The notes under the pieces were generated by a model. The model was not told where the DNA came from. It searched no databases and saw only the letters and a program-made list of their open reading frames with translations. A DNA stretch of 64,000 bases from Umezawaea sp. (GTDB taxonomy: Bacteria > Actinomycetota > Actinomycetes > Mycobacteriales > Pseudonocardiaceae). Position 1 is the stretch's first letter, and each line of letters begins with the position of its first letter. Below, in pieces: positions 28,584 through 38,567 of this stretch. The position numbers and the translations under genes are program-made. The stretch is taken from positions 369-64,368 of the forward strand of contig NZ_DASUSQ010000037.1 in assembly GCF_036375055.1 (NCBI RefSeq), given 5' to 3'.

Positions 28584-29192
28584 ATGCGCCGGAACACCGG
28601 TCGGGCACGACGCGGCGGTGTGGCGGTGGCTGTCGTGGCCGCGGTGGGTCTCCTGGCGGCGTGCAGCGTCAGGGTCGGGGAGACCGAGGGCCCCGGCGGT
28701 GGCGGCGAGACCGGCGGCGGCTCCGGCGTGAAGGGGCCCGACACGTTCACGAGCGGCGTCGCGGAGGCGGCGGAGCAGTGCGCCGAGGTGAGGGTGGCGC
28801 TCGGCGAGGCGAAGCCCGGCGAGGGCGGCCCGACGCAGATGCGGCTGCCGCTGACGATGACGAACGCGGGCGGCACGGCGTGCCTGCTGCGCGGGTTCCC
28901 CGGTGCGCGGCTGAAGGGGCAGGACAGCCAGACGTGGGACCTGACGCGGTCCGGTGCCGAGGTGGAGGACGTGCGGCTGACGCCCGGCGCGAGCACGACC
29001 GCCTACCTGACGTACCTGCCCGAGACGGGCGACCAGCGGTGGGACGTCACGACGGTGACGGTGACGCCGCCGAACACCGACGACTCTCAGGTCTTCGACT
29101 GGCCGGCCGGGTCCGTGCTCAGGCAGGACGCGGCCACGCACCCCGGCACCTACGTCGGGCCGGTCGGCGCGTGGGCCCCCGGTGCGGCCTAG
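28584..29192 (+). CDS. DUF4232-like lipoprotein
   Basis: RBS AAAAGGAG, lipobox LLAACSV, body …TNAGGTACLLRGFPGARL… typical of DUF4232. The upstream part of the ORF is non-coding-like. Confidence 0.6.
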   Translation: MRRNTGRARRGGVAVAVVAAVGLLAACSVRVGETEGPGGGGETGGGSGVKGPDTFTSGVAEAAEQCAEVRVALGEAKPGEGGPTQMRLPLTMTNAGGTACLLRGFPGARLKGQDSQTWDLTRSGAEVEDVRLTPGASTTAYLTYLPETGDQRWDVTTVTVTPPNTDDSQVFDWPAGSVLRQDAATHPGTYVGPVGAWAPGAA

Positions 29193-30169
29193 GGCCGCAG
29201 GTAGCGCTCCACGTCGAGCATCTCCCGCGGACCAGGGGGCTCGGTGGTGGCGCAGGCGGAGAGGGCCGTCGTGAGGGCGTGCGCGGACAGGTCCGTGCCG
29301 ATCAGGACGAGCTGGGTCCCGCGCGGAACGGCGCGGGGCCACGGGGTGCGGTGCAGCGACAGGTGGTCGCCGACGACCTGGAGGGCGTAGCGGTCGTCCG
29401 TGCCGAAGTCGACGAAGCCCTTCACCCGGTACAGCCCCGCCGGGCGGTCCGACAGGAAGCGCAGCAGCCCGCGCGGGCTCACCGGTGCGTCCGTCGTGTG
29501 CTCGACGCTGTCGTACAGCGCGTGCACGTGGTCGCCGTGGTCCTCGACCAGGTCCTCGAAGGACAGTTGCCCGACCGTCGGCGTGCGCGGCCGGGGGTCG
29601 AAGAGCAGGGCCGGGTCCACGCGGCCGTGGGTGGTCTCCACGACGGGCGTGCCGGGGGTGATCGCGGCGCGCACCGCGGCCAGGTCGGTGGCGCGGTCGG
29701 TCTTGTTCAGCACCACGAGGTCGGCCAGGCGCAGGTGCTTCGCCAGTTCCGGGTGGCGGGCGCTGGTCGTGGGGAACTCCGCGGCGTCCACGACGAGCAC
29801 GAGGCCGCCGTAGGTGGTGCGCGGCTGCTCGCTGGCCAGCACCAGCTTCACCATGCTCTGCGGCTCGGCCAGTCCGCTGGCCTCGATGACGATCACGTCG
29901 ACGTTCGCGGACGGCTTGGCGAGCCTGGTGAGCATGTCGTCCATGTCGGACGGGTCGACCGCGCAGCACAGGCAGCCGTTGCTCAGCGAGATGGTGGAGT
30001 CGACCTGGCTCGCGACCGTCATCGCGTCGACGTTGATGCTGCCGAAGTCGTTGACCAGGACGCCGATCCGCGTGCCGCCCGCTGTCGCCAGCAGGTGGTT
30101 GAGCAGGGTCGTCTTCCCGGAGCCGAGGAAACCCGCGACGACGATCACCGGGATCCGCTGCTTGGCCAC
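29189..30169 (-). CDS. CobW/COG0523-family metallochaperone GTPase
   Basis: VVAGFLGSGKTTLLNHLL, CxCC motif (GCLCCAV), LVLNKTD. Confidence 0.85.
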   Translation of the reverse strand: MAKQRIPVIVVAGFLGSGKTTLLNHLLATAGGTRIGVLVNDFGSINVDAMTVASQVDSTISLSNGCLCCAVDPSDMDDMLTRLAKPSANVDVIVIEASGLAEPQSMVKLVLASEQPRTTYGGLVLVVDAAEFPTTSARHPELAKHLRLADLVVLNKTDRATDLAAVRAAITPGTPVVETTHGRVDPALLFDPRPRTPTVGQLSFEDLVEDHGDHVHALYDSVEHTTDAPVSPRGLLRFLSDRPAGLYRVKGFVDFGTDDRYALQVVGDHLSLHRTPWPRAVPRGTQLVLIGTDLSAHALTTALSACATTEPPGPREMLDVERYLRP

Positions 30170-30292
30170 GCCTCCATGCTAGAGCGGCGCTGGGTGACGA
30201 ACCCGCCGCAGCGGGTGAGGGTCGACCGCAAAAATTGCGAAACGCCACGAAGTTCGAGGTCAGCTGGATAGTGTCCAGCCAACACGGCACAG

Positions 30293-30916
30293 GTGGGGGG
30301 CGCGTTGGCGGAGTTCGCGAGGACGGCGTTCGGCTACCCGACGGCGTTCCTGAGCGTGCTCCTCGTCGTGGTCGTCCTGTACTGGTCGCTGGCCGCGGTC
30401 GGGGTGCTGGACGGGGACGACGGGGTCCTCGGCGTCGAGGGCGCGCTGGCCGGGCTCGGCCTCGACGGCGTGCCCGTGACCGTCGTGCTGTCGCTGTTGA
30501 CCGCTTTCTCCTGGTTCGCCTGCCTCGGGGGCTCCGTGCTGCTCAACGGATTCGACCTGTCGTCCCCGGTCGTGATCGCGCTCGGCCTGGTCGTCCTCGT
30601 GGTGGCCGTGGTCGTCGGCCTGCTGCTCACCAGGCTGCTGGCGTGGCCGCTGCGGAAGCTGTTCCCGAACCCGCGGCAGGCCTCCCGCAACGACTTCGTC
30701 GGCAGGCCGTGCGTGATCCGCACGGGCACCGTCACCCACGACTTCGGTCAGGCCGAGGTCACCGCCTCCGACGGCTCGTCGGCCGTCGTGCAGGTGCGCC
30801 AAGCGGGACAGGACGTCCTGGTCGCGGGCAGCACCGCTCTGATCTTCGACTACGACGTCGACGGGGAGTTCTTCTGGGTCGCGCCAGTCGATTCCGCGCT
30901 CGGCCCCGACCTCTGA
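30293..30916 (+). CDS. NfeD/YqiJ-like membrane protein with C-terminal OB-fold
   Basis: Three to four TM helices, then a beta-rich tail (…GRPCVIRTGTVTHDFGQAEVTASDGSSAVVQVRQAG…) as in NfeD partners of SPFH proteins. Directly upstream of the flotillin gene. Confidence 0.6.
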   Translation: MGGALAEFARTAFGYPTAFLSVLLVVVVLYWSLAAVGVLDGDDGVLGVEGALAGLGLDGVPVTVVLSLLTAFSWFACLGGSVLLNGFDLSSPVVIALGLVVLVVAVVVGLLLTRLLAWPLRKLFPNPRQASRNDFVGRPCVIRTGTVTHDFGQAEVTASDGSSAVVQVRQAGQDVLVAGSTALIFDYDVDGEFFWVAPVDSALGPDL

Positions 30917-30932
30917 CCGCAGGGAGACCCTG

Positions 30933-33068
30933 ATGGACGTCATCACCACGGGATTCGGCATCCTCATCGCCGTCGTCGTGCTCGTCGTGCTCGTGCTGCT
31001 GTTCATGATCAGCCGCCTGTTCCGCAAGATCGAGCAGGGCAAGGCGCTGATCGTCTCCAAGGTGCGCAAGGTCGACGTGACCTTCACCGGCGCCGTCGTG
31101 CTGCCGGTGCTGCACCGCGCCGAGGTCATGGACATCTCGGTGAAGACCATCGAGATCAAGCGCGCGGGCAACGAGGGGCTGATCTGCCGCGACAACATCC
31201 GCGCCGACATCCGCATCACGTTCTTCGTGCGGGTCAACAAGACCGTCGAGGACGTCATCAAGGTCGCCCAGGCCATCGGCACCGCGCGGGCGAGCGACGA
31301 GCAGACGTTGCAGGAGCTGTTCAACGCCAAGTTCTCCGAGGCGTTGAAGACCGTCGGCAAGCAGCTCGACTTCGTCGACCTCTACACCAAGCGCGACGAG
31401 TTCCGCGACCAGATCATCCGCGTCATCGGCACCGACCTCAACGGGTACAGCCTGGAGGACGCGGCGATCGACTTCCTGGAGCAGACGCCGATGTCCCAGT
31501 TGGACCCGGCGAACATCCTGGACGCGCAGGGCATCCGCAAGATCACCGAGCTGACGGCGATCGAGCACGTGCGCACCAACGAGTTCCAGCGCAGCGAGGA
31601 GAAGGAGATCACCCGCCAGAACGTCGACGCGCGGGAGGCCATCCTCGAACTGGAGCGCAGGCAGGCGGACGCGGAGACCAAGCAGAAGCGCGAGATCGAG
31701 ACGATGCGCGCCCGCGAGGAGGCCGAGACCGCGAAGGTGCAGTCGGAGGAGCGGCTCAAGGCGAGCACCGCCCACATCCGCACCGAGGAGCAGCTCGGCA
31801 TCCAGGACCAGAACCGGGCCCGCGAGATCGCCGTGGCGGAGAAGAACCGCGAGCGCGTGATCGCCATCGAGACCGAGCGGATCGAGAAGGACCGCCAGCT
31901 CGAGGTGATCGGCCGCGAGCGGGAGACCGCGCTGGCCAGCATCTCGAAGGACAAGGAGCTGGAGGGCGAGAAGCGCGACATCGCCGAGGTGATCCGCGAG
32001 CGGATCGCGGTCGAGAAGACCGTGGCCGAGCAGGAGGAGAGCATCAAGCGCCTCCGGTCGGTCGAGGAGGCCGAGCGCTTCCGCCAGACCACGGTGATCC
32101 ACGCCGAGGCCGAGGCCCAGGAGGGCCTGGTCAAGGACATCAAGGCCGCCGAAGCCGCCGAGCTGACCGCGAAGCACAGGGCGCGCGAGGAGCTGACGCT
32201 CGCCGAGGCCAGGCAGCAGACCGCCGAGCTGGACACGCGCGCGAAGATCCGCCTCGCCGAGGGCACGCAGGCCGCCGCCGCGGCCGAGGGCCTGGCCGAG
32301 GTGCAGGTCCGCGAACGGGACGCCGAGGCGATCGAGAAGGTCGGCCGCGCGGAAGCCGCCGTCGCGCGGGAGAAGCAGCTCGCGCAGGCCGAGGGCACCG
32401 AGAAGGTCGGTCTGGCCGAGGCCGTCGTGTCGCGGGAGAAGCAGCTCGCCGAAGCCGAGGGCGCGGAGAAGGTCGGCATGGCCCAGGCCGTGGTCGAGCG
32501 CGAGAAGGCCATGGTCGCCGCCACCGCGATCCGCGAGAAGCTCAAGGGCGAGGCGGAGGGCCTCTCCGACAAGGCCGCCGCGATGAACGCGCTCGACGAC
32601 GCGACCCGCGGCCACGAGGAGTACCGGCTGCGCCTGGAGACCGAGAAGGAGGTCCGCCTCGCGGGCCTCGACGTGCAGCGCCAGCTCGCGGAGTCGCAGG
32701 CGTCCGTGCTGGCCGCGGGCCTGGAGAAGGCCGACATCGACATCGTCGGCGGCGAGAGCATGTTCTTCGACCGCGTGGTCGGCGCGATCACGATGGGCAA
32801 GAGCGTCGACGGGTTCGTCGAGCACTCCGACGTGGCCCGGAGCCTCGGCGGGTCGTGGCTCGACGGCTCCGCGGACTTCACCCAGGACATCACCAGGGTG
32901 CTCGGCTCGTTCGGCACGAACGACGTGCAGAACCTGACCGTGTCCGCGCTGCTCGTGCGGCTCATCTCGTCCGGCGGCCCGGACTCGGGCAAGCTGACGG
33001 AACTGCTGGACACCGCGAAGCGGCTGGGGCTGGCCGAGCGACCGGTCGCCGCCCTCGCGGCGAGGTGA
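30933..33068 (+). CDS. flotillin-family (SPFH/band-7, YqiK-like) protein with long EA-rich coiled coil
   Basis: N-terminal TM, SPFH domain (…LIVSKVRKVDVTFTGAVVLPVLHRAEVMDISVKTIEI…) and an extended E/A/R/K coiled coil. Confidence 0.85.
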   Translation: MDVITTGFGILIAVVVLVVLVLLFMISRLFRKIEQGKALIVSKVRKVDVTFTGAVVLPVLHRAEVMDISVKTIEIKRAGNEGLICRDNIRADIRITFFVRVNKTVEDVIKVAQAIGTARASDEQTLQELFNAKFSEALKTVGKQLDFVDLYTKRDEFRDQIIRVIGTDLNGYSLEDAAIDFLEQTPMSQLDPANILDAQGIRKITELTAIEHVRTNEFQRSEEKEITRQNVDAREAILELERRQADAETKQKREIETMRAREEAETAKVQSEERLKASTAHIRTEEQLGIQDQNRAREIAVAEKNRERVIAIETERIEKDRQLEVIGRERETALASISKDKELEGEKRDIAEVIRERIAVEKTVAEQEESIKRLRSVEEAERFRQTTVIHAEAEAQEGLVKDIKAAEAAELTAKHRAREELTLAEARQQTAELDTRAKIRLAEGTQAAAAAEGLAEVQVRERDAEAIEKVGRAEAAVAREKQLAQAEGTEKVGLAEAVVSREKQLAEAEGAEKVGMAQAVVEREKAMVAATAIREKLKGEAEGLSDKAAAMNALDDATRGHEEYRLRLETEKEVRLAGLDVQRQLAESQASVLAAGLEKADIDIVGGESMFFDRVVGAITMGKSVDGFVEHSDVARSLGGSWLDGSADFTQDITRVLGSFGTNDVQNLTVSALLVRLISSGGPDSGKLTELLDTAKRLGLAERPVAALAAR

Positions 33069-33075
33069 CGCGGCG

Positions 33076-36000
33076 GTGACGTCGACGCGGGAGCTGGACG
33101 CGGGCACCTACGAGGTGCTGCGGGCGCGGCTGGCCGAGCAGGCCGCCGCGCTCGCGAGCCGGGCCGAGGAGCTGAACGCCGAACGCCTGCGGGTGTTCGG
33201 CAGCGCCGAACTCCAGCTCATCGGCACCGAACGGATCCGCACCGCGAACAACTGCGTGCCGCGGGACTGCATCTCCGTGCCCGCGGGCACCGGAGGCACG
33301 AGCGCGGTCGGCGGCCTGATGCTGTTCGGCTACAACGTGTTCATCGGGCTCAAGCCCGAGACGACCGTGGACGACGTGTTCTCGCTGCACCGCTTCACCC
33401 GCGACGGCGACGCGTTCCGGTTCGAGGACGCGGGCCCCGACGCGCTGCCCGGCCTGCTGCGCGACCCCCGGTTCCTGCGCGACTTCGCCGAGCTGTACCG
33501 GTACTACCGCGACACCCGCCTGCTCCAGCTCCGCCGGGTGGAGAGCAAGGTGCTGGCGATCTTCCAGACCGGTGCGCGCACCGAGGACGTCCGCGTGCTG
33601 CGCTGGCGGGTCGCGCCGGACGGATCGGTGTCCTACGTGGACAACCGGGGCGAGCGCGACCACGTGTTCCCGCCCTCGCACGACTTCGAGTGGACCACGA
33701 CGGTCCGCGAGAACCACGTGCTGGGGCGGCACCCGCACATCTCGATCGAGGACGAGGTGTTCGTCGAGGCCGTCGGCGGAGACCTCACCGTCAAGGTCGA
33801 GAACAACACCGAGAGCGGCGAGGGCGTCTACCACGAGCCGGTGGACGAGCCGCTCCAGAGCCTCGCCGACGCGGACGTCCGGTACGCGCGGGTCGGGCCG
33901 CTGATCCTGCTGAAGATCCTGCCCTACAACGAGAAGACCTGGCGGCACCTGGTCTTCAACACCCGCACCAAGGGCGTGGTGCGGCTCGACGGCGTCGGCC
34001 AGGCGTGCCAGCGGCTGCCCGAGGACCAGGGGGTGATCTTCCCCGGCGGCTACTACCTGGAGACCGGGGTCAACAAGACCTTCGACACCGACGTGGAGAG
34101 CCTGGAGTTCGAGCGGGTGATCCGCTCGACCAACGGCGAGGACGTGCTCTACGTCTTCCACGCCCGCAGCGAGGGCCGGTCGCTGCTGCTGCCCTACAAC
34201 GTCATCCGCAAGGAAGTGGCCACGCCCATCCCGTGCCACGGCTACTCGCTGTTCGACGACGGCACGCTGGTCGTGTTCCGCGCCGCGTCGGAGGAGCCGA
34301 CCAGGGTGCACCCGATGCAGGTGTGGCAGACGCCGTACCTGTCGGACACCTACGCCGCCGCGCAGCCCGTCGGCACCGGCCCGCTGGACCGGGTCGGCAA
34401 CGCGGACCTGGTGCGCGGCATCTCCGACTGCCTGTCCATCTCCCGGATGGTGGGCGAGATGGCCCCCTCCACCCCGGTGTTCGAGGGGCTGATCGCCGCG
34501 TGCGCGCGGGCGTTCGACCACTACCACTGGCTCGGCGACGCCGACCTGCACGACCTGGGCACGCCGTTGTCGCAGGTGCGGGCGACGGCGGAGCAGGTGC
34601 TGGACGAGTTCGAGACCGTGCAGGCGCTCACCGACCAGGCCGCCGCGGCGCTGGAGGAGGCGAGCGCGCAGGTCGCGTCCCTGGTGCGGCAGCAGCGCGG
34701 CGAGACGCCGACGTCGGCCGACGCGTGGGTGCGCAGGCTGGTGGACCTCCGCAGGGCGCAGGGCAGGCTCGTCACGCTGCGCGAGCTGCGGTACGTCGAC
34801 CTGGCGCGGATCGACGTGCTGGTCGCCGACCTCGCCCAGGAGCTGGGCACGTCCGCGCAGCGGGCCGTCGCGCACCTCCAGCGCGAGGACGCCTTCACCG
34901 GCTACCACACCGAGATCGACGACCTGGTGGCGAAGGCGGACGCCATCGCCACCGTCGCCGAGGCCAAGCCGGTCGTGGACCGGCTGACCGAGCAGTCGCA
35001 GGGCCTGGAGGTCCTCACCGAGGTCGTCGGCTCGCTGGACATCGCCGACGCCACCGTGCGCACCGGCATCCTGGAGCGCATCGGCGAGGTGCTCGGCGGC
35101 ATCAACCGCGCACGGGCCACCGTGGACGGTCGGCGCAGGCGGCTGCTCGACACCGAGGGGCGCGCGGAGTTCGCCGCCGAGTTCGCGCTGCTGGGCCAGG
35201 CGATCACCGGCGCGCTGGCCGTCGCGGACTCGCCGCGGCGCTGCGACGAGCAGCTCGGCAGGCTGCTGCTCCAACTGGAGAACCTGGAGTCGCGGTTCAG
35301 CGACTTCGACGACTTCCTGGCGGAGCTGGGCGCGAAGCGGACCGACGTCTACGAGGCGTTCTCCTCCCGCAAGCAGGCGCTGCTGGACGAGCGCGCCCGC
35401 CGGTCGGACCGGCTCGTCGACTCCGCCGACCGCATCCTGGCCAGCGTCACCCGCCGGGTCGGCACGCTCACGTCGCTGGACGACGTGAACACCTACTTCG
35501 TCTCCGACCCGATGGTCGCGAAGCTCCGCAGCGTCGTGTCCGACCTGCGGGAACTCGGCGACCAGGTGCGCGCGGAGGAGCTGGAGGGCAGGCTCCTCGC
35601 CGCCCGCCAGGAGGCGGGGCGCTCGCTGCGCGACCGGCTCGACCTGTTCACCGACGGCGGCGAGACCATCAAGCTGGGCAAGCACCGGTTCGCGGTGAAC
35701 ACCCAGGCGGTGGACCTCACCCTGGTGCCGCAGGACGGCCGGATGTCGTTCGCCATCACCGGGACCGACTTCCGCGAACCCGTCACGGACCCGGCCTTCG
35801 CCGCCACCGAGCCGTTCTGGGACCAGCTGCTGGTGTCGGAGTCGGCCGAGGTCTACCGCGCCGAGCACCTGGCCGCGTCGATCCTCGCGGGCCACGACGA
35901 CCCGGCCGTGCTGCACGAGACCGAGCTGCTCGACGTCGTGCGCCGCGCCGCGGAGTCCCGCTACGACGAGGGGTACGAGCGCGGCGTCCACGACCACGAC

Positions 36001-37947
36001 ACCGCCCGGATCCTGGAGGTGCTGCTCCGCCTGCACGCGGGCGCGGGCGTGCTGCGCTACCCGCCGGCCGCCCGTGCCGCGGCCCAGCTGTTCTGGGCGT
36101 TCGAGGCGACCGACGACCTGAAGGCCGCCTGGACCCGCCGCGCGACGTCGCTGGACCGCGCCCGCACGGTCTTCGGCCGGTCGCGGGCGATCGACGTGCT
36201 CGCCGAGGAGATGGGCGCCGCCATCGGCGACGAGCTCGCGGGCGAGTACCTGTTCGAGGAGCTGGTCCGCGCGCCCGCGGGGTTCGCGACCAGCGCCGCC
36301 GCCCGGTCGCTGCTGGAGCGGTTCCACCGCGCGCTGGGCAGCCGCCACGAGTTCGACGAGGACCTGCGGGCGGTCGACCTGCCCGCCCGCCGCCAGCTCG
36401 TCGAGGCCTGGTTGGGCGTGTTCCTCGGCGACGAGGTCTCACCCGACCTGCCGGAGGCCGTCGCGCTGGAGCTGTGCCACGACCTGCCGCGCTACGAGTC
36501 GTCGGCCGAGCTGACCGGTGTCGTGGACGGCCTGCTGGGCACCCACCCCCGGATCGTGGACCGGAGGCTGGAGTTCCGCGTGGACGAGCTGCTCGCCAGG
36601 ACCAGGGCGTTCCGCACCGAGCGGATCCCGGCGTTCCGGTCGTACCTCAAGCAGCGCAACGAACTCGTGGCGCGCAGGAAGAAGGAGCTCCGGCTCGGCG
36701 AGTTCCAGCCGAAGGTGATGAGCGCGTTCGTCCGCAACCGGCTGCTGGACGAGGTGTACCTGCCGCTGATCGGCGACAACCTCGCCAAGCAGCTCGGCGC
36801 GGCCGGCGACGCCAAGCGCACCGACCAGATGGGCCTGCTGCTGCTCATCTCCCCGCCGGGCTACGGCAAGACGACGCTCATGGAGTACGTCGCCAACCGG
36901 CTCGGACTGATCTTCGTGAAGGTCAACGGGCCGTCGCTCGGCCACGACGTCACGTCCGTCGACCCGGCCGAGGCGCCCAACGCCACCGCGCGGCAGGAGG
37001 TCGAGAAGATCTCGTTCGCGCTGGAGATGGGCACCAACGTCCTGCTGTACCTGGACGACATCCAGCACACCTCGCCCGAGCTGCTCCAGAAGTTCATCTC
37101 CCTGTGCGACGCGCAGCGGCGGATGGAGGGCGTGTGGGACGGCGGCACCCGCACGTACGACCTGCGCGGCAAGCGGTTCGCGGTCTGCATGGCGGGCAAC
37201 CCGTACACCGAGTCCGGCAAGCGGTTCCGCGTCCCCGACATGCTGGCCAACCGCGCCGACGTGTGGAACCTCGGCGACGTCCTGTCCGGCCGCGAGGACC
37301 TGTTCGCGCTGAGCTACGTCGAGAACTCGCTCACCTCGAACCCCGTGCTCGCCCAACTGTCCACAAGGGATCGGGGGGACGTGGAGCTGCTGGTGCGGCT
37401 GGCCCGCGGCGACGACGGCGTGCGCCCGGACCAGCTCTCCCACCCGTACTCGTCGGTCGAGCTGGAGCAGGTGCTCTCGGTGCTGCGCAAGCTGGTCCGC
37501 GCCCAGGAGGTCGTGCTGGCCAACAACCGGGCCTACATCGCCTCCGCCGCGCAGGCCGACGCGTCGCGCACCGAGCCGCCGTTCCAGCTCCAGGGGTCCT
37601 ACCGCAACATGAACAAGCTGGCCGAGCGCATCGTGCCGGTGATGAACGACGAGGAGCTGGCCGCCGTCATCGACGACCACTACGTCGGGGAGGCGCAGAC
37701 CCTCACCTCCGGGGCCGAGGCGAACCTGCTGAAGCTGGGTGAGCTGCGCGGCACGCTGACCGCCGAGCAGGCGGCGAGGTGGGCCGAGGTGAAGGCCGCG
37801 TACCGCCGGGCCCTGGCGCTGGGCGGCTCGACCGACGATCCGGTGAGCCGCGCGGTCGGTGCCGTCGGCCTGCTCGCGGACCGCGTCGGCACGGCGATCG
37901 ACCGGCTGGCGGGCCCCGAGGAGCGGGGCTGGTGCGGTAACCGCTGA
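33076..37947 (+). CDS. giant (1623 aa) protein with C-terminal AAA_5-type (MoxR/McrB/dynein-like) ATPase module and ~1250-aa N-terminal region of unknown function
   Basis: Walker A LLLISPPGYGKTTLMEY, Walker B VLLYLDDIQH, sensor/Arg region FAVCMAGNPYTESGKRFRVPDMLANRADVW. Coherent coding statistics throughout. Starts 8 nt after the flotillin stop. Confidence 0.8.
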   Translation: MTSTRELDAGTYEVLRARLAEQAAALASRAEELNAERLRVFGSAELQLIGTERIRTANNCVPRDCISVPAGTGGTSAVGGLMLFGYNVFIGLKPETTVDDVFSLHRFTRDGDAFRFEDAGPDALPGLLRDPRFLRDFAELYRYYRDTRLLQLRRVESKVLAIFQTGARTEDVRVLRWRVAPDGSVSYVDNRGERDHVFPPSHDFEWTTTVRENHVLGRHPHISIEDEVFVEAVGGDLTVKVENNTESGEGVYHEPVDEPLQSLADADVRYARVGPLILLKILPYNEKTWRHLVFNTRTKGVVRLDGVGQACQRLPEDQGVIFPGGYYLETGVNKTFDTDVESLEFERVIRSTNGEDVLYVFHARSEGRSLLLPYNVIRKEVATPIPCHGYSLFDDGTLVVFRAASEEPTRVHPMQVWQTPYLSDTYAAAQPVGTGPLDRVGNADLVRGISDCLSISRMVGEMAPSTPVFEGLIAACARAFDHYHWLGDADLHDLGTPLSQVRATAEQVLDEFETVQALTDQAAAALEEASAQVASLVRQQRGETPTSADAWVRRLVDLRRAQGRLVTLRELRYVDLARIDVLVADLAQELGTSAQRAVAHLQREDAFTGYHTEIDDLVAKADAIATVAEAKPVVDRLTEQSQGLEVLTEVVGSLDIADATVRTGILERIGEVLGGINRARATVDGRRRRLLDTEGRAEFAAEFALLGQAITGALAVADSPRRCDEQLGRLLLQLENLESRFSDFDDFLAELGAKRTDVYEAFSSRKQALLDERARRSDRLVDSADRILASVTRRVGTLTSLDDVNTYFVSDPMVAKLRSVVSDLRELGDQVRAEELEGRLLAARQEAGRSLRDRLDLFTDGGETIKLGKHRFAVNTQAVDLTLVPQDGRMSFAITGTDFREPVTDPAFAATEPFWDQLLVSESAEVYRAEHLAASILAGHDDPAVLHETELLDVVRRAAESRYDEGYERGVHDHDTARILEVLLRLHAGAGVLRYPPAARAAAQLFWAFEATDDLKAAWTRRATSLDRARTVFGRSRAIDVLAEEMGAAIGDELAGEYLFEELVRAPAGFATSAAARSLLERFHRALGSRHEFDEDLRAVDLPARRQLVEAWLGVFLGDEVSPDLPEAVALELCHDLPRYESSAELTGVVDGLLGTHPRIVDRRLEFRVDELLARTRAFRTERIPAFRSYLKQRNELVARRKKELRLGEFQPKVMSAFVRNRLLDEVYLPLIGDNLAKQLGAAGDAKRTDQMGLLLLISPPGYGKTTLMEYVANRLGLIFVKVNGPSLGHDVTSVDPAEAPNATARQEVEKISFALEMGTNVLLYLDDIQHTSPELLQKFISLCDAQRRMEGVWDGGTRTYDLRGKRFAVCMAGNPYTESGKRFRVPDMLANRADVWNLGDVLSGREDLFALSYVENSLTSNPVLAQLSTRDRGDVELLVRLARGDDGVRPDQLSHPYSSVELEQVLSVLRKLVRAQEVVLANNRAYIASAAQADASRTEPPFQLQGSYRNMNKLAERIVPVMNDEELAAVIDDHYVGEAQTLTSGAEANLLKLGELRGTLTAEQAARWAEVKAAYRRALALGGSTDDPVSRAVGAVGLLADRVGTAIDRLAGPEERGWCGNR

Positions 37948-38030: not shown

Positions 38031-38567
38031 CTAGCGGTCGCCGTGGCCGCAGGCGATGCCGTCGGAGTTGTCGTCCAGGTCGTGCCGGTCCTGCCCGCGG
38101 ACCTCGATGTGCCGGGACCCGTGCCGGTGCAGCCAGTCGCACTCGTCCACCAGCAGCGGGAGCAGCCACGGCACGCAGGTGCCGTGGGTGTCGTAGTCGT
38201 CGTCGCAGCCGCCCAGTTCCTCCAGCCACGGGGGGAGGTCGGTGCGCGTCGGGTCCGGTGGAGGAGGAGGAGGAGGTGGTTGCGCGGCGCTCGTCGGTGC
38301 GGGGGGCAGGTCCGCCCCGGTCGTCGTGGGTGCTCGCGGTGGCGCGGGGGGCGGTGCGGGCGGCGGTGGCGCGGCGGTCGTCGGGCCGACGCCGAGCACG
38401 CTGGTGGTGTAGGTGGCGCTGAGCACCGGTTCCGGGCCGAAGCTGCCCTGCACCTGCCGCACGTCGACGGGTTTCGGCCCGCCGGACAGCACGAGCGTGC
38501 CGATCATCGCGCCGCCGACCAGCGCTGCCCCCGTCAAGACGAGGACGCGGCGTCTGCCACTGATCAT
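38031..38567 (-). CDS. secreted Pro-rich protein with C-terminal excalibur-like calcium-binding motif
   Basis: Signal/TM VLVLTGAALVGGAMIGTLVL, polyproline stretch, C-terminal DRHDLDDNSDGIACGHGD (excalibur DxDxDGxxCE-like). Confidence 0.55.
   Translation of the reverse strand: MISGRRRVLVLTGAALVGGAMIGTLVLSGGPKPVDVRQVQGSFGPEPVLSATYTTSVLGVGPTTAAPPPPAPPPAPPRAPTTTGADLPPAPTSAAQPPPPPPPPDPTRTDLPPWLEELGGCDDDYDTHGTCVPWLLPLLVDECDWLHRHGSRHIEVRGQDRHDLDDNSDGIACGHGDR

Follow-up and report, generated by a model that had tools for sequence, protein, structure and literature searches.

A YqiJ/YuaF-type membrane protein, a YqiK-type flotillin and a giant MoxR-type ATPase encoded by a three-gene unit of Umezawaea sp., an actinobacterial member of a widespread system

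Flotillins are widespread in bacteria and their function is still debated. In this report we describe a three-gene unit located on a stretch of 64,000 nucleotides (nt) of Umezawaea sp. (NCBI RefSeq assembly GCF_036375055.1, contig NZ_DASUSQ010000037.1, positions 369 to 64,368 of the forward strand), designated the window in the following; all coordinates refer to this stretch. By homology, the unit encodes a divergent membrane protein of the YqiJ/YuaF type (gene 1), a flotillin of the YqiK type belonging to the SPFH proteins (gene 2), and an unusually large, predicted cytoplasmic ATPase with a C-terminal AAA+ domain of the MoxR type (gene 3). The linkage between the flotillin and the ATPase genes is real and old.

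The three open reading frames (ORFs) are co-directional on the plus strand, at positions 30293-30916 (207 amino acids, aa), 30933-33068 (711 aa) and 33076-37947 (1623 aa), and are separated by gaps of 16 nt (genes 1 and 2) and 7 nt (genes 2 and 3; flotillin stop at 33068, ATPase start at 33076). Their GC content at the third codon position (GC3, 0.96-0.99) and at the second position (GC2, 0.40-0.45), in a window with about 72% GC, indicates that they are real genes. The genes flanking them on either side, cobW for a CobW-family GTPase (29189-30169) and an unidentified ORF (38031-38567), are both located on the opposite strand, and a consensus terminator scan of the operon detected no plus-strand terminator-like sites between the three genes. 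Together with the short gaps, this argues for a discrete unit, which by its sequence is a self-contained three-gene operon. A consensus promoter scan called no promoter of the operon. In an alignment of the upstream regions of several Pseudonocardiaceae loci, a TAnnGT hexamer is kept some 30 nt before the start of gene 1, from which it can be concluded that the operon probably has its own promoter; no -35 element is recognizable for this candidate -10 hexamer (TAGTGT in the window), and the consensus scan made no call there. Gene 1 probably starts with the TTG codon at 30305 (203 aa) rather than with the GTG codon at 30293 selected by the ORF finder (207 aa), since in the same alignment the orthologues start with an ATG at the position of this TTG, which moreover is preceded by a G-rich Shine-Dalgarno-like run (aGGTGGGGGG). 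The features of the operon are the following:

30269..30274, plus strand: candidate -10 hexamer TAGTGT; TAnnGT is kept at the same distance 5' of gene 1 in related Pseudonocardiaceae
30305..30916, plus strand: gene 1, divergent YqiJ/YuaF-type (short NfeD-like) membrane protein of 203 aa, as judged from hydropathy, hhalign and transitive homology
30677..30904, plus strand: C-terminal soluble beta-rich domain of gene 1, a putative NfeD-like OB fold according to the pattern of the family alignment
30933..33068, plus strand: gene 2, YqiK-type flotillin (SPFH protein) of 711 aa, from the Band_7 match and BLASTP with YqiK
30933..31034, plus strand: predicted N-terminal membrane anchor of the flotillin, aa 1-34, a single hydrophobic segment in a Kyte-Doolittle scan
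31026..31457, plus strand: SPFH/Band_7 domain, aa 32-175, from the PF01145 match of the N-terminal fragment
31575..32732, plus strand: long coiled coil rich in E, A, K and R, about aa 215-600, from composition and alignment with the coiled coil of YqiK
32733..33065, plus strand: C-terminal segment, aa 601-711, peculiar to flotillins of the ATPase-linked subfamily, from the cross-phylum comparison of flotillins
33076..37947, plus strand: gene 3, predicted cytoplasmic ATPase of 1623 aa composed of an N-terminal helix, a beta-propeller, a helical stalk and a MoxR-type AAA+ domain, from Pfam, homologues and the absence of transmembrane segments
33088..33198, plus strand: long N-terminal helix, aa 5-41, in the AlphaFold2 model (mean pLDDT 88.7)
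33214..34329, plus strand: predicted beta-propeller, aa 47-418, with about seven blades of four strands each, forming the core of DUF3686, from the model and fold searches
34381..36675, plus strand: helical bundle or coiled-coil "stalk", aa 436-1200, mostly helical by composition
34888..35139, plus strand: DUF7902 within the stalk, aa 605-688, from Pfam
about 35671-35805, plus strand: short beta-rich segment of the stalk, about aa 866-910, amid the helical middle region
35983-36000, plus strand: invariant GVHDxD motif of the stalk, aa 970-975, from the alignment of homologues
36823..37335, plus strand: MoxR-type AAA+ core, aa 1250-1420, from Pfam, the model and invariant motifs
36850-36876, plus strand: Walker A motif SPPGYGKTT, with PPGYGKTT at aa 1260-1267
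37042-37068, plus strand: Walker B motif LLYLDDIQH, aa 1323-1331, with DD at aa 1327-1328 (nt 37054-37059)
within 36823..37335, plus strand: further features of the AAA+ core, namely the pre-sensor-1 beta-hairpin (aa 1349-1362), sensor-1 N1375 and R1393
37336..37905, plus strand: C-terminal helical lid and extra helical domain, from helices of the model and invariant columns
37573-37611, plus strand: invariant loop EPPFxLQGSYRNM, aa 1500-1512, in the helical domain following the AAA+ lid

The gene 1 protein possesses three hydropathic segments in a Kyte-Doolittle analysis (aa 6-38, 46-80 and 78-117), which are read as three transmembrane helices and precede the beta-rich C-terminal domain, the last 75 residues of the protein, which is conserved in the family alignment (VGR..V.T..V...FGQAEV...G....V.VR......L..GS.A.I.DYD). 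A preliminary description of the locus, made from the DNA letters and their translations, had considered this protein a canonical NfeD/YqiJ protein, which is not borne out: no Pfam model matches it even at E ≤ 10, including NfeD (PF01957) and the YqiJ models (PF21001 / DUF1449), and only one of 14 homologues is weakly matched by NfeD (E = 0.0078). No meaningful relative was obtained from the Protein Data Bank (PDB) either, by sequence search or by search with a family profile. An assignment as a divergent YqiJ/YuaF-type protein can be made transitively, because the gene 1 family is collinear with E. coli YqiJ in an hhalign comparison (probability 56.6%, E = 1.1e-4; moderate confidence), because a Verrucomicrobial homologue, which aligns with the family at a probability of 99.8% (E = 3e-29), passes the YqiJ_N model of Pfam (25.2 bits versus a cut-off of 23), and because the equivalent protein of Hymenobacter carries the NCBI name DUF1449. 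A weak match to YqiJ_N is also shown by the homologue of Dysgonomonas.

For gene 2, the suggested identity as a YqiK-like SPFH protein is corroborated. Its N-terminal fragment (aa 1-256) matches Band_7 (PF01145) with 40.1 bits (cut-off 23.6; E = 5.1e-10), and the BLASTP alignment with E. coli YqiK (1e-37, 28% identity over 459 aa) covers transmembrane segment, SPFH domain and coiled coil alike. The full-length protein has no Band_7 match in Pfam, most likely owing to the compositional bias of the coiled coil. The C-terminal flotillin domain Flot (PF15975) was not matched in Pfam by the full protein or by aa 523-711, and a PDB sequence search gave no meaningful match. As the hydrophobic segment at aa 1-34 is followed by the basic residues RLFRK, the positive-inside rule predicts a cytoplasmic location for most of the protein. 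The flotillins linked to the ATPase form a subfamily of their own, with 41-50% identity across phyla versus only 24% to YqiK, and those of several phyla have in common a block of the type AKIDIVGGETxFFD..GKxVDR and a tail of about 90 aa, both largely missing from E. coli YqiK. The segment formed by aa 601-711 is a candidate docking site. Full-length members of the subfamily, namely the flotillin of the window and those of loci L001, L002, L088, L089 and L093, have no Band_7 match in Pfam and bear "-" as precomputed annotation; since only the isolated N-terminal fragment passes the model, the subfamily is under-annotated in databases.

Gene 3 had been described as a protein whose only recognizable module is a C-terminal MoxR-type AAA+ ATPase, preceded by about 1250 aa of helical sequence without a motif. 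The ATPase has proved correct. All motifs quoted for it (PPGYGKTT, LLYLDDIQH and GNPYTESGKRFRVPDMLANRAD) are present, AAA and AAA_5 both exceed the Pfam cut-offs at aa 1255-1380, and a fold search with the predicted model of the domain identified the MoxR proteins CbbQ (6l1q) and NorQ (9qh4) as the closest relatives, the pre-sensor-1 beta-hairpin being present. Conservation within the protein is highest in the AAA+ core. Over 19-40 homologues down to 28% identity, SPPGYGKTT, the DD of Walker B, N1375, R1393 and, further on, EPPFxLQGSYRNM are invariant. Throughout the family, Walker B reads LDD instead of the usual DE, and both aspartates are invariant among these homologues. The N-terminal part, on the other hand, is neither uniformly helical nor without a known family, as it comprises Pfam DUF3686 (aa 26-484, E = 5.6e-220) and DUF7902 (aa 605-688, E = 2.2e-31), and a high-confidence model together with fold searches predicts a beta-propeller for aa 47-418. 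A PDB search with a profile of aa 840-1235 yielded no meaningful match, and neither the GVHDxD motif nor the beta-rich segment at about aa 866-910 has a relative in Pfam or the PDB; these two elements could form a metal or catalytic site. With the full-length protein, a PDB sequence search found matches only around Walker A, and NCBIfam contributed only sub-threshold P-loop matches to RuvB/Cdc48. The Kyte-Doolittle analysis revealed no transmembrane segment in gene 3; this, and the single N-terminal anchor of gene 2 with the basic residues following it, places both proteins by prediction in the cytoplasm.

The linkage of the genes was determined in a sample of 80 genome loci, 76 of which have usable upstream DNA. 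The preliminary description had itself named missing linkage to SPFH/NfeD genes in related genomes as an observation that would speak against it; instead, the flotillin gene is located directly upstream of the ATPase gene and on the same strand in 76 of 76 informative loci, and the association extends across phyla. A member of the gene 1 family, detected with an iterated profile, directly precedes the flotillin gene in 63 of the 75 informative loci. All 12 loci without a detectable gene 1 belong to Streptomyces and have kept the flotillin and ATPase genes (L055, L059-L061, L064, L070, L071, L073, L074, L077, L079 and L082); in three further loci (L042, L045 and L046), gene 1 is shortened or only weakly matching. 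This suggests that gene 1 decays in some Streptomyces. When all ORFs of 88 loci were clustered, only the trio was conserved and no other gene family around it. The next most common neighbor is a divergent upstream gene for a PucR-like regulator (GGDEF_2 and HTH_30 domains), present in about 30 Streptomyces loci (e.g. L043:3565-4623, minus strand) and absent from the window; it is a candidate local regulator of the operon in Streptomyces.

Gene 3 homologues number more than 6204 proteins in the databases, most of them named "DNA repair ATPase" by NCBI. The closest one stems from Umezawaea endophytica (93% identity); identity amounts to about 75% to the proteins of Streptomyces and Dactylosporangium and to 60-93% across actinobacterial genera. 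An exhaustive search of representatives clustered at 50% identity, with the first 1200 aa as query, gave 469 clusters with E < 1e-30. Identity falls to 28% among the relatives of full length (1600-1900 aa), which include proteins of Bacteroidota, Verrucomicrobiota and Planctomycetota, and among species-representative genomes at least 581 candidate stretches encode a relative. Thirteen PLSDB records do so as well, including Pseudomonas fluorescens pQBR103 and replicons of Proteus mirabilis and Vibrio campbellii. A collection of 50,697 phage records contains no homologue.

At least eight phyla possess the trio, with unrelated flanks. It was found in Streptomyces, where the flanks differ from those of the window, in genomes or metagenome-assembled genomes of Deltaproteobacteria, Clostridia, proteobacteria and Myxococcus, and in Deinococcus, Planctomycetota, Prosthecobacter and Aureispira. 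In Dysgonomonas, two genes are inserted into the trio, one of which codes for an M54 peptidase. Divergent PspA and AAA genes adjoin the trio of a Verrucomicrobial genome; on a Hymenobacter plasmid it is preceded by genes for a Tir chaperone and PspA, and on pQBR103 by a PspA/polyamine module (PspA, rhomboid, DUF2491, DUF350, DUF1190 and glutathionylspermidine synthase). LemA and TPM-domain genes are located divergently upstream in Proteus mirabilis (L094:1582-3362), and genes for a PLD-like protein (PLDc_2) and TelA downstream in Vibrio campbellii (L095:11855-13633); both are membrane-stress-associated gene sets. In one locus of the Verrucomicrobiota (L088:13444-19151), the RNA-repair genes for RtcR, a Ro60-like protein (TROVE/vWA) and RtcB follow 3' of the trio. 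When the window and 90 loci were searched by tblastn, for PspA with two queries and for Tir with one, no PspA or CesT/Tir gene was found near the trio outside the source loci, the queries being distant and the test correspondingly weak. The flanks are syntenic within Streptomyces and differ between genera. A linkage resulting merely from the shared ancestry of close relatives was considered and rejected, since the flanks change between genera and the trio is present in unrelated phyla and on plasmids.

The flanks of the window hold housekeeping-type genes and not defense genes. On the 3' side of the trio (38659-40664), a YbaB/EbfC-like gene and a gene with a WXG100_2 domain have the look of a cluster related to ESX / type VII secretion; Umezawaea endophytica (L002) has a small gene of the WXG100/EspC-like kind between their counterparts. 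The same species carries an integrative element (RepSA, an excisionase-like HTH protein and a tyrosine integrase; L002:434-3122) 5' of the DUF4232-cobW genes, at a position occupied by Dus, GGDEF and other genes in the window. A 1051-aa ORF on the minus strand of the window (21294-24449) has gene-like codon statistics.

The three-gene arrangement, which the preliminary description had set against the two-gene units of classical NfeD-flotillin operons, has been described before. A comparative genomics study of the phage shock protein (PSP) response (mSystems 2024, PMC11237479; preprint 10.1101/2020.09.24.301986) reports an operon type in which genes for a YqiJ/YuaF transmembrane protein, a Band-7/coiled-coil/flotillin protein and a beta-propeller/coiled-coil/AAA ATPase, designated a "novel AAA+ ATPase", follow each other, with CesT/Tir-PspA added in some lineages and a PLD hydrolase in some Proteobacteria (PMC11237479). 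Abbreviated operons without PspA are stated to be widespread, and a role in sub-membrane dynamics together with PspA, also if encoded elsewhere, was proposed; the same gene order is listed for Dokdonia (PMC11237479, Table S3). The three gene types and their order are identical in the window, which holds the "abbreviated" form, without CesT/Tir-PspA or PLD. On the Hymenobacter plasmid, genes for a Tir chaperone, PspA, DUF1449 and a protein of 722 aa and one for a "DNA repair ATPase", which shares 43% identity with gene 3 along 97% of its length, are arranged as in Dokdonia, and, since the Hymenobacter and Vibrio loci reproduce the published layouts with gene 3 homologues, the systems are the same. 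The evidence that the published ATPase belongs to the gene 3 family is indirect but strong, the comparison having been made via Hymenobacter. The trio of the window is thus an actinobacterial member of a computationally described system. The published account gives neither Pfam names, structures, linkage statistics and actinobacterial examples for the ATPase nor experiments (PMC11237479). Our literature search found no paper mentioning DUF3686, no experimental study of the trio and, for "DNA repair ATPase" combined with flotillin/SPFH or YqiK/YqiJ combined with ATPase, nothing except PMC11237479; a survey of SPFH proteins in P. aeruginosa does not mention such an ATPase.

Several known systems resemble parts of the trio. 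In E. coli yqiJ-yqiK and B. subtilis yuaF-floT (SPFH2 "p-flotillins", PMC2636767), a small gene for a protein with several transmembrane segments is located directly upstream of the flotillin gene, as it is here, but these are two-gene operons without an ATPase gene (checked for E. coli), whereas the window has a third gene. Gene 2 shares 24-28% identity with YqiK and adds the subfamily-specific C-terminal block, and gene 1 belongs to a family collinear with YqiJ, itself being too divergent for the Pfam models of YqiJ or NfeD. As a rule, MoxR ATPases, CbbQ and NorQ among them, need an adaptor with a VWA domain. CbbQ (Rubisco activase, 6l1q) and NorQ (9qh4) are proteins of about 260 aa with the separate VWA adaptors CbbO and NorD, whereas in gene 3, which has no VWA gene nearby, propeller and helical stalk, about 1250 aa in length, form one polypeptide with the motor, which shares 16% sequence identity with CbbQ and NorQ and has DD in Walker B. 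A functional analogy exists to HflK/C-FtsH and to the eukaryotic prohibitin / m-AAA protease, in which an SPFH scaffold is likewise combined with an AAA+ ATPase; for HflK/C-FtsH, an SPFH cage partnered with an AAA+ machine at the membrane has been described (PMC13220708). FtsH is membrane-embedded and belongs to the classical clade of AAA+ proteins with a protease domain, whereas gene 3 is predicted to be soluble, is of the MoxR type and has no protease domain. The SPFH domains of HflK/C are periplasmic, whereas that of gene 2 is predicted to be cytoplasmic. Finally, the AAA+ ATPase Vps4 remodels a membrane-bound polymer, ESCRT-III, which belongs to the PspA/Vipp1 superfamily, and PspA genes adjoin the trio in three phyla.

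From the domain identities and the gene linkage observed, we infer the physical contacts, the substrate and the stress role outlined here: the trio may constitute a flotillin-tethered AAA+ remodeling machine for membrane or envelope stress, which we consider moderately probable. The gene 2 flotillin would be anchored by its one N-terminal segment and would expose its SPFH domain and coiled coil to the cytoplasm; the gene 1 protein, by analogy with NfeD proteins and their own SPFH partners, would bind the flotillin oligomer or nucleate it, and the two would form a membrane-bound assembly facing the cytoplasm. The C-terminal MoxR-type AAA+ domain of gene 3 would form a ring, whereas the N-terminal propeller, placed as a head on a helical stalk measuring about 750 aa, probably serves in recognition. 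By means of propeller and stalk, gene 3 would dock on the cytoplasmic flotillin assembly, perhaps at the subfamily-specific tail of the flotillin, and would remodel in an ATP-driven manner the assembly or proteins held by it, be it by assembly, disassembly or extraction. Such remodeling would serve membrane maintenance under envelope stress, a role suggested by the recurrence of PspA (ESCRT-III-like), CesT/Tir, TPM/LemA, PLD and TelA beside the trio in other phyla. The model is further supported by the predicted cytoplasmic location shared by gene 2 and gene 3, by the divergence of the ATPase-linked flotillins from YqiK, by the independently published operon (PMC11237479) and by HflK/C-FtsH as a precedent for an SPFH cage combined with an AAA+ machine. 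The idea of a machine anchored in a membrane microdomain, which the preliminary description had put forward, thus keeps its core in the conserved flotillin linkage and the MoxR-type motor, whereas the defense-type role that it had mentioned gained no support from PADLOC or the phage collection.

A number of observations weigh against such a flotillin-tethered machine. The twelve Streptomyces loci without gene 1 show that the trio is not obligatory. Aureibacter tunicatorum (L090), which harbors the most divergent full-length gene 3 homologue (28% identity), has no flotillin or YqiJ-like neighbor, but a PRiA4_ORF3 gene upstream. Genes for pspA, CesT, PLD or TelA were not detectable beside the trio in the window or in other actinobacterial loci, although the tblastn searches, with distant queries, were weak. 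A VWA-domain gene is absent from the trio and its immediate neighbors, and no family outside the trio is conserved over the 88 loci. The DD in place of DE in Walker B makes the rate of ATP hydrolysis uncertain.

A more specific form of the remodeling machine can be put forward tentatively: gene 3 might be a dedicated assembly or disassembly factor for flotillin cages, a "Vps4 for SPFH scaffolds", in which the propeller would grip the flotillin tail and the MoxR ring would pull, so that microdomains could be built or dissolved on demand in envelope stress. An alternative view of the same machine, which appears rather unlikely to us, regards the flotillin and the YqiJ-like protein as a platform only, the ATPase acting not on the flotillin lattice but on clients such as PspA/ESCRT-III-like polymers, misfolded or unassembled membrane proteins, or enzymes requiring metal-cofactor insertion as in the case of NorQ/CbbQ. 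The closest structural relatives of the motor, CbbQ and NorQ, are indeed known to remodel client enzymes. In three phyla the trio has PspA as a neighbor, cooperation with a PspA encoded elsewhere has been proposed (PMC11237479), S. aureus FloA-NfeD is reported to stabilize unfolded proteins (PMC11222466), and a protease gene is present in or near some operons (M54 in Dysgonomonas, rhomboid in pQBR103). However, the only universally conserved partners of the ATPase are the flotillin and, usually, the YqiJ-like protein, no client gene being conserved, and the flotillin subfamily co-varies with the ATPase, as is expected for direct partners.

We consider it improbable that the trio is an anti-phage or conflict system (defense or abortive infection), in which the flotillin platform would sense membrane perturbation and the large NTPase would serve as effector or switch. 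Large multi-domain NTPases beside membrane proteins are common in defense islands, but PADLOC reported for this locus only IetA and mad8 at E values of 0.004-0.013 over about 30-70 residues around Walker A, i.e. P-loop noise, and no nuclease, toxin or other effector domain was recognized in gene 3. Copies on megaplasmids, the PLD-family gene 3' of the Vibrio trio and RtcR/Ro60/RtcB 3' of the trio in one Verrucomicrobial locus would fit a conflict system; against it stand the lack of any homologue in the phage records, a base composition that is native, housekeeping-type rather than defense genes in the flanks of the window, and a high conservation that looks vertical (60-93% across actinobacterial genera, with syntenic flanks in Streptomyces). 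That gene 3 is a true DNA-repair ATPase adjoining the flotillin gene incidentally is highly improbable, as this reading can refer only to the inherited labels "DNA repair ATPase" (NCBI) and "ATPase involved in DNA repair" (Pfam DUF3686), presumably derived from coiled-coil similarity to SbcC-like COG entries, and to a LexA-family regulator upstream of the Hymenobacter operon, whereas the protein has a single C-terminal MoxR-type AAA+ fold and not an ABC fold of the SMC/SbcC/RecN type, no DNA-binding or nuclease domain was detected in it and no nuclease gene adjacent to it, the neighbors conserved across phyla are membrane proteins, and the literature search found neither a paper on DUF3686 nor one joining "DNA repair ATPase" with flotillin/SPFH.

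The existence of the operon being known already, what is new here is the identity of the ATPase in Pfam (DUF3686/DUF7902), its predicted structural parts, a seven-blade propeller and a CbbQ/NorQ-like motor, the quantified linkage to the flotillin, and the arguments against "DNA repair" as its label. Over at least eight phyla, one flotillin subfamily is tied to a MoxR-type motor protein of about 1600 aa, and the high conservation of the latter (about 75% between distant actinobacterial genera; more than 6000 proteins) speaks for an ATP-dependent activity of importance at flotillin assemblies. As the ATPase family is currently mislabelled "DNA repair ATPase" and its flotillin partner is without precomputed Pfam annotation in the collection searched, the system is missed by routine annotation. 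The trio is present in tractable organisms, namely Streptomyces, Proteus mirabilis, Vibrio campbellii and, on plasmid pQBR103, Pseudomonas fluorescens. We know of no enzyme previously found to control the dynamics of SPFH scaffolds; if gene 3 acts on flotillin cages as Vps4 does on its polymer, it would be the first, and it would provide a genetic handle on what bacterial flotillins do.

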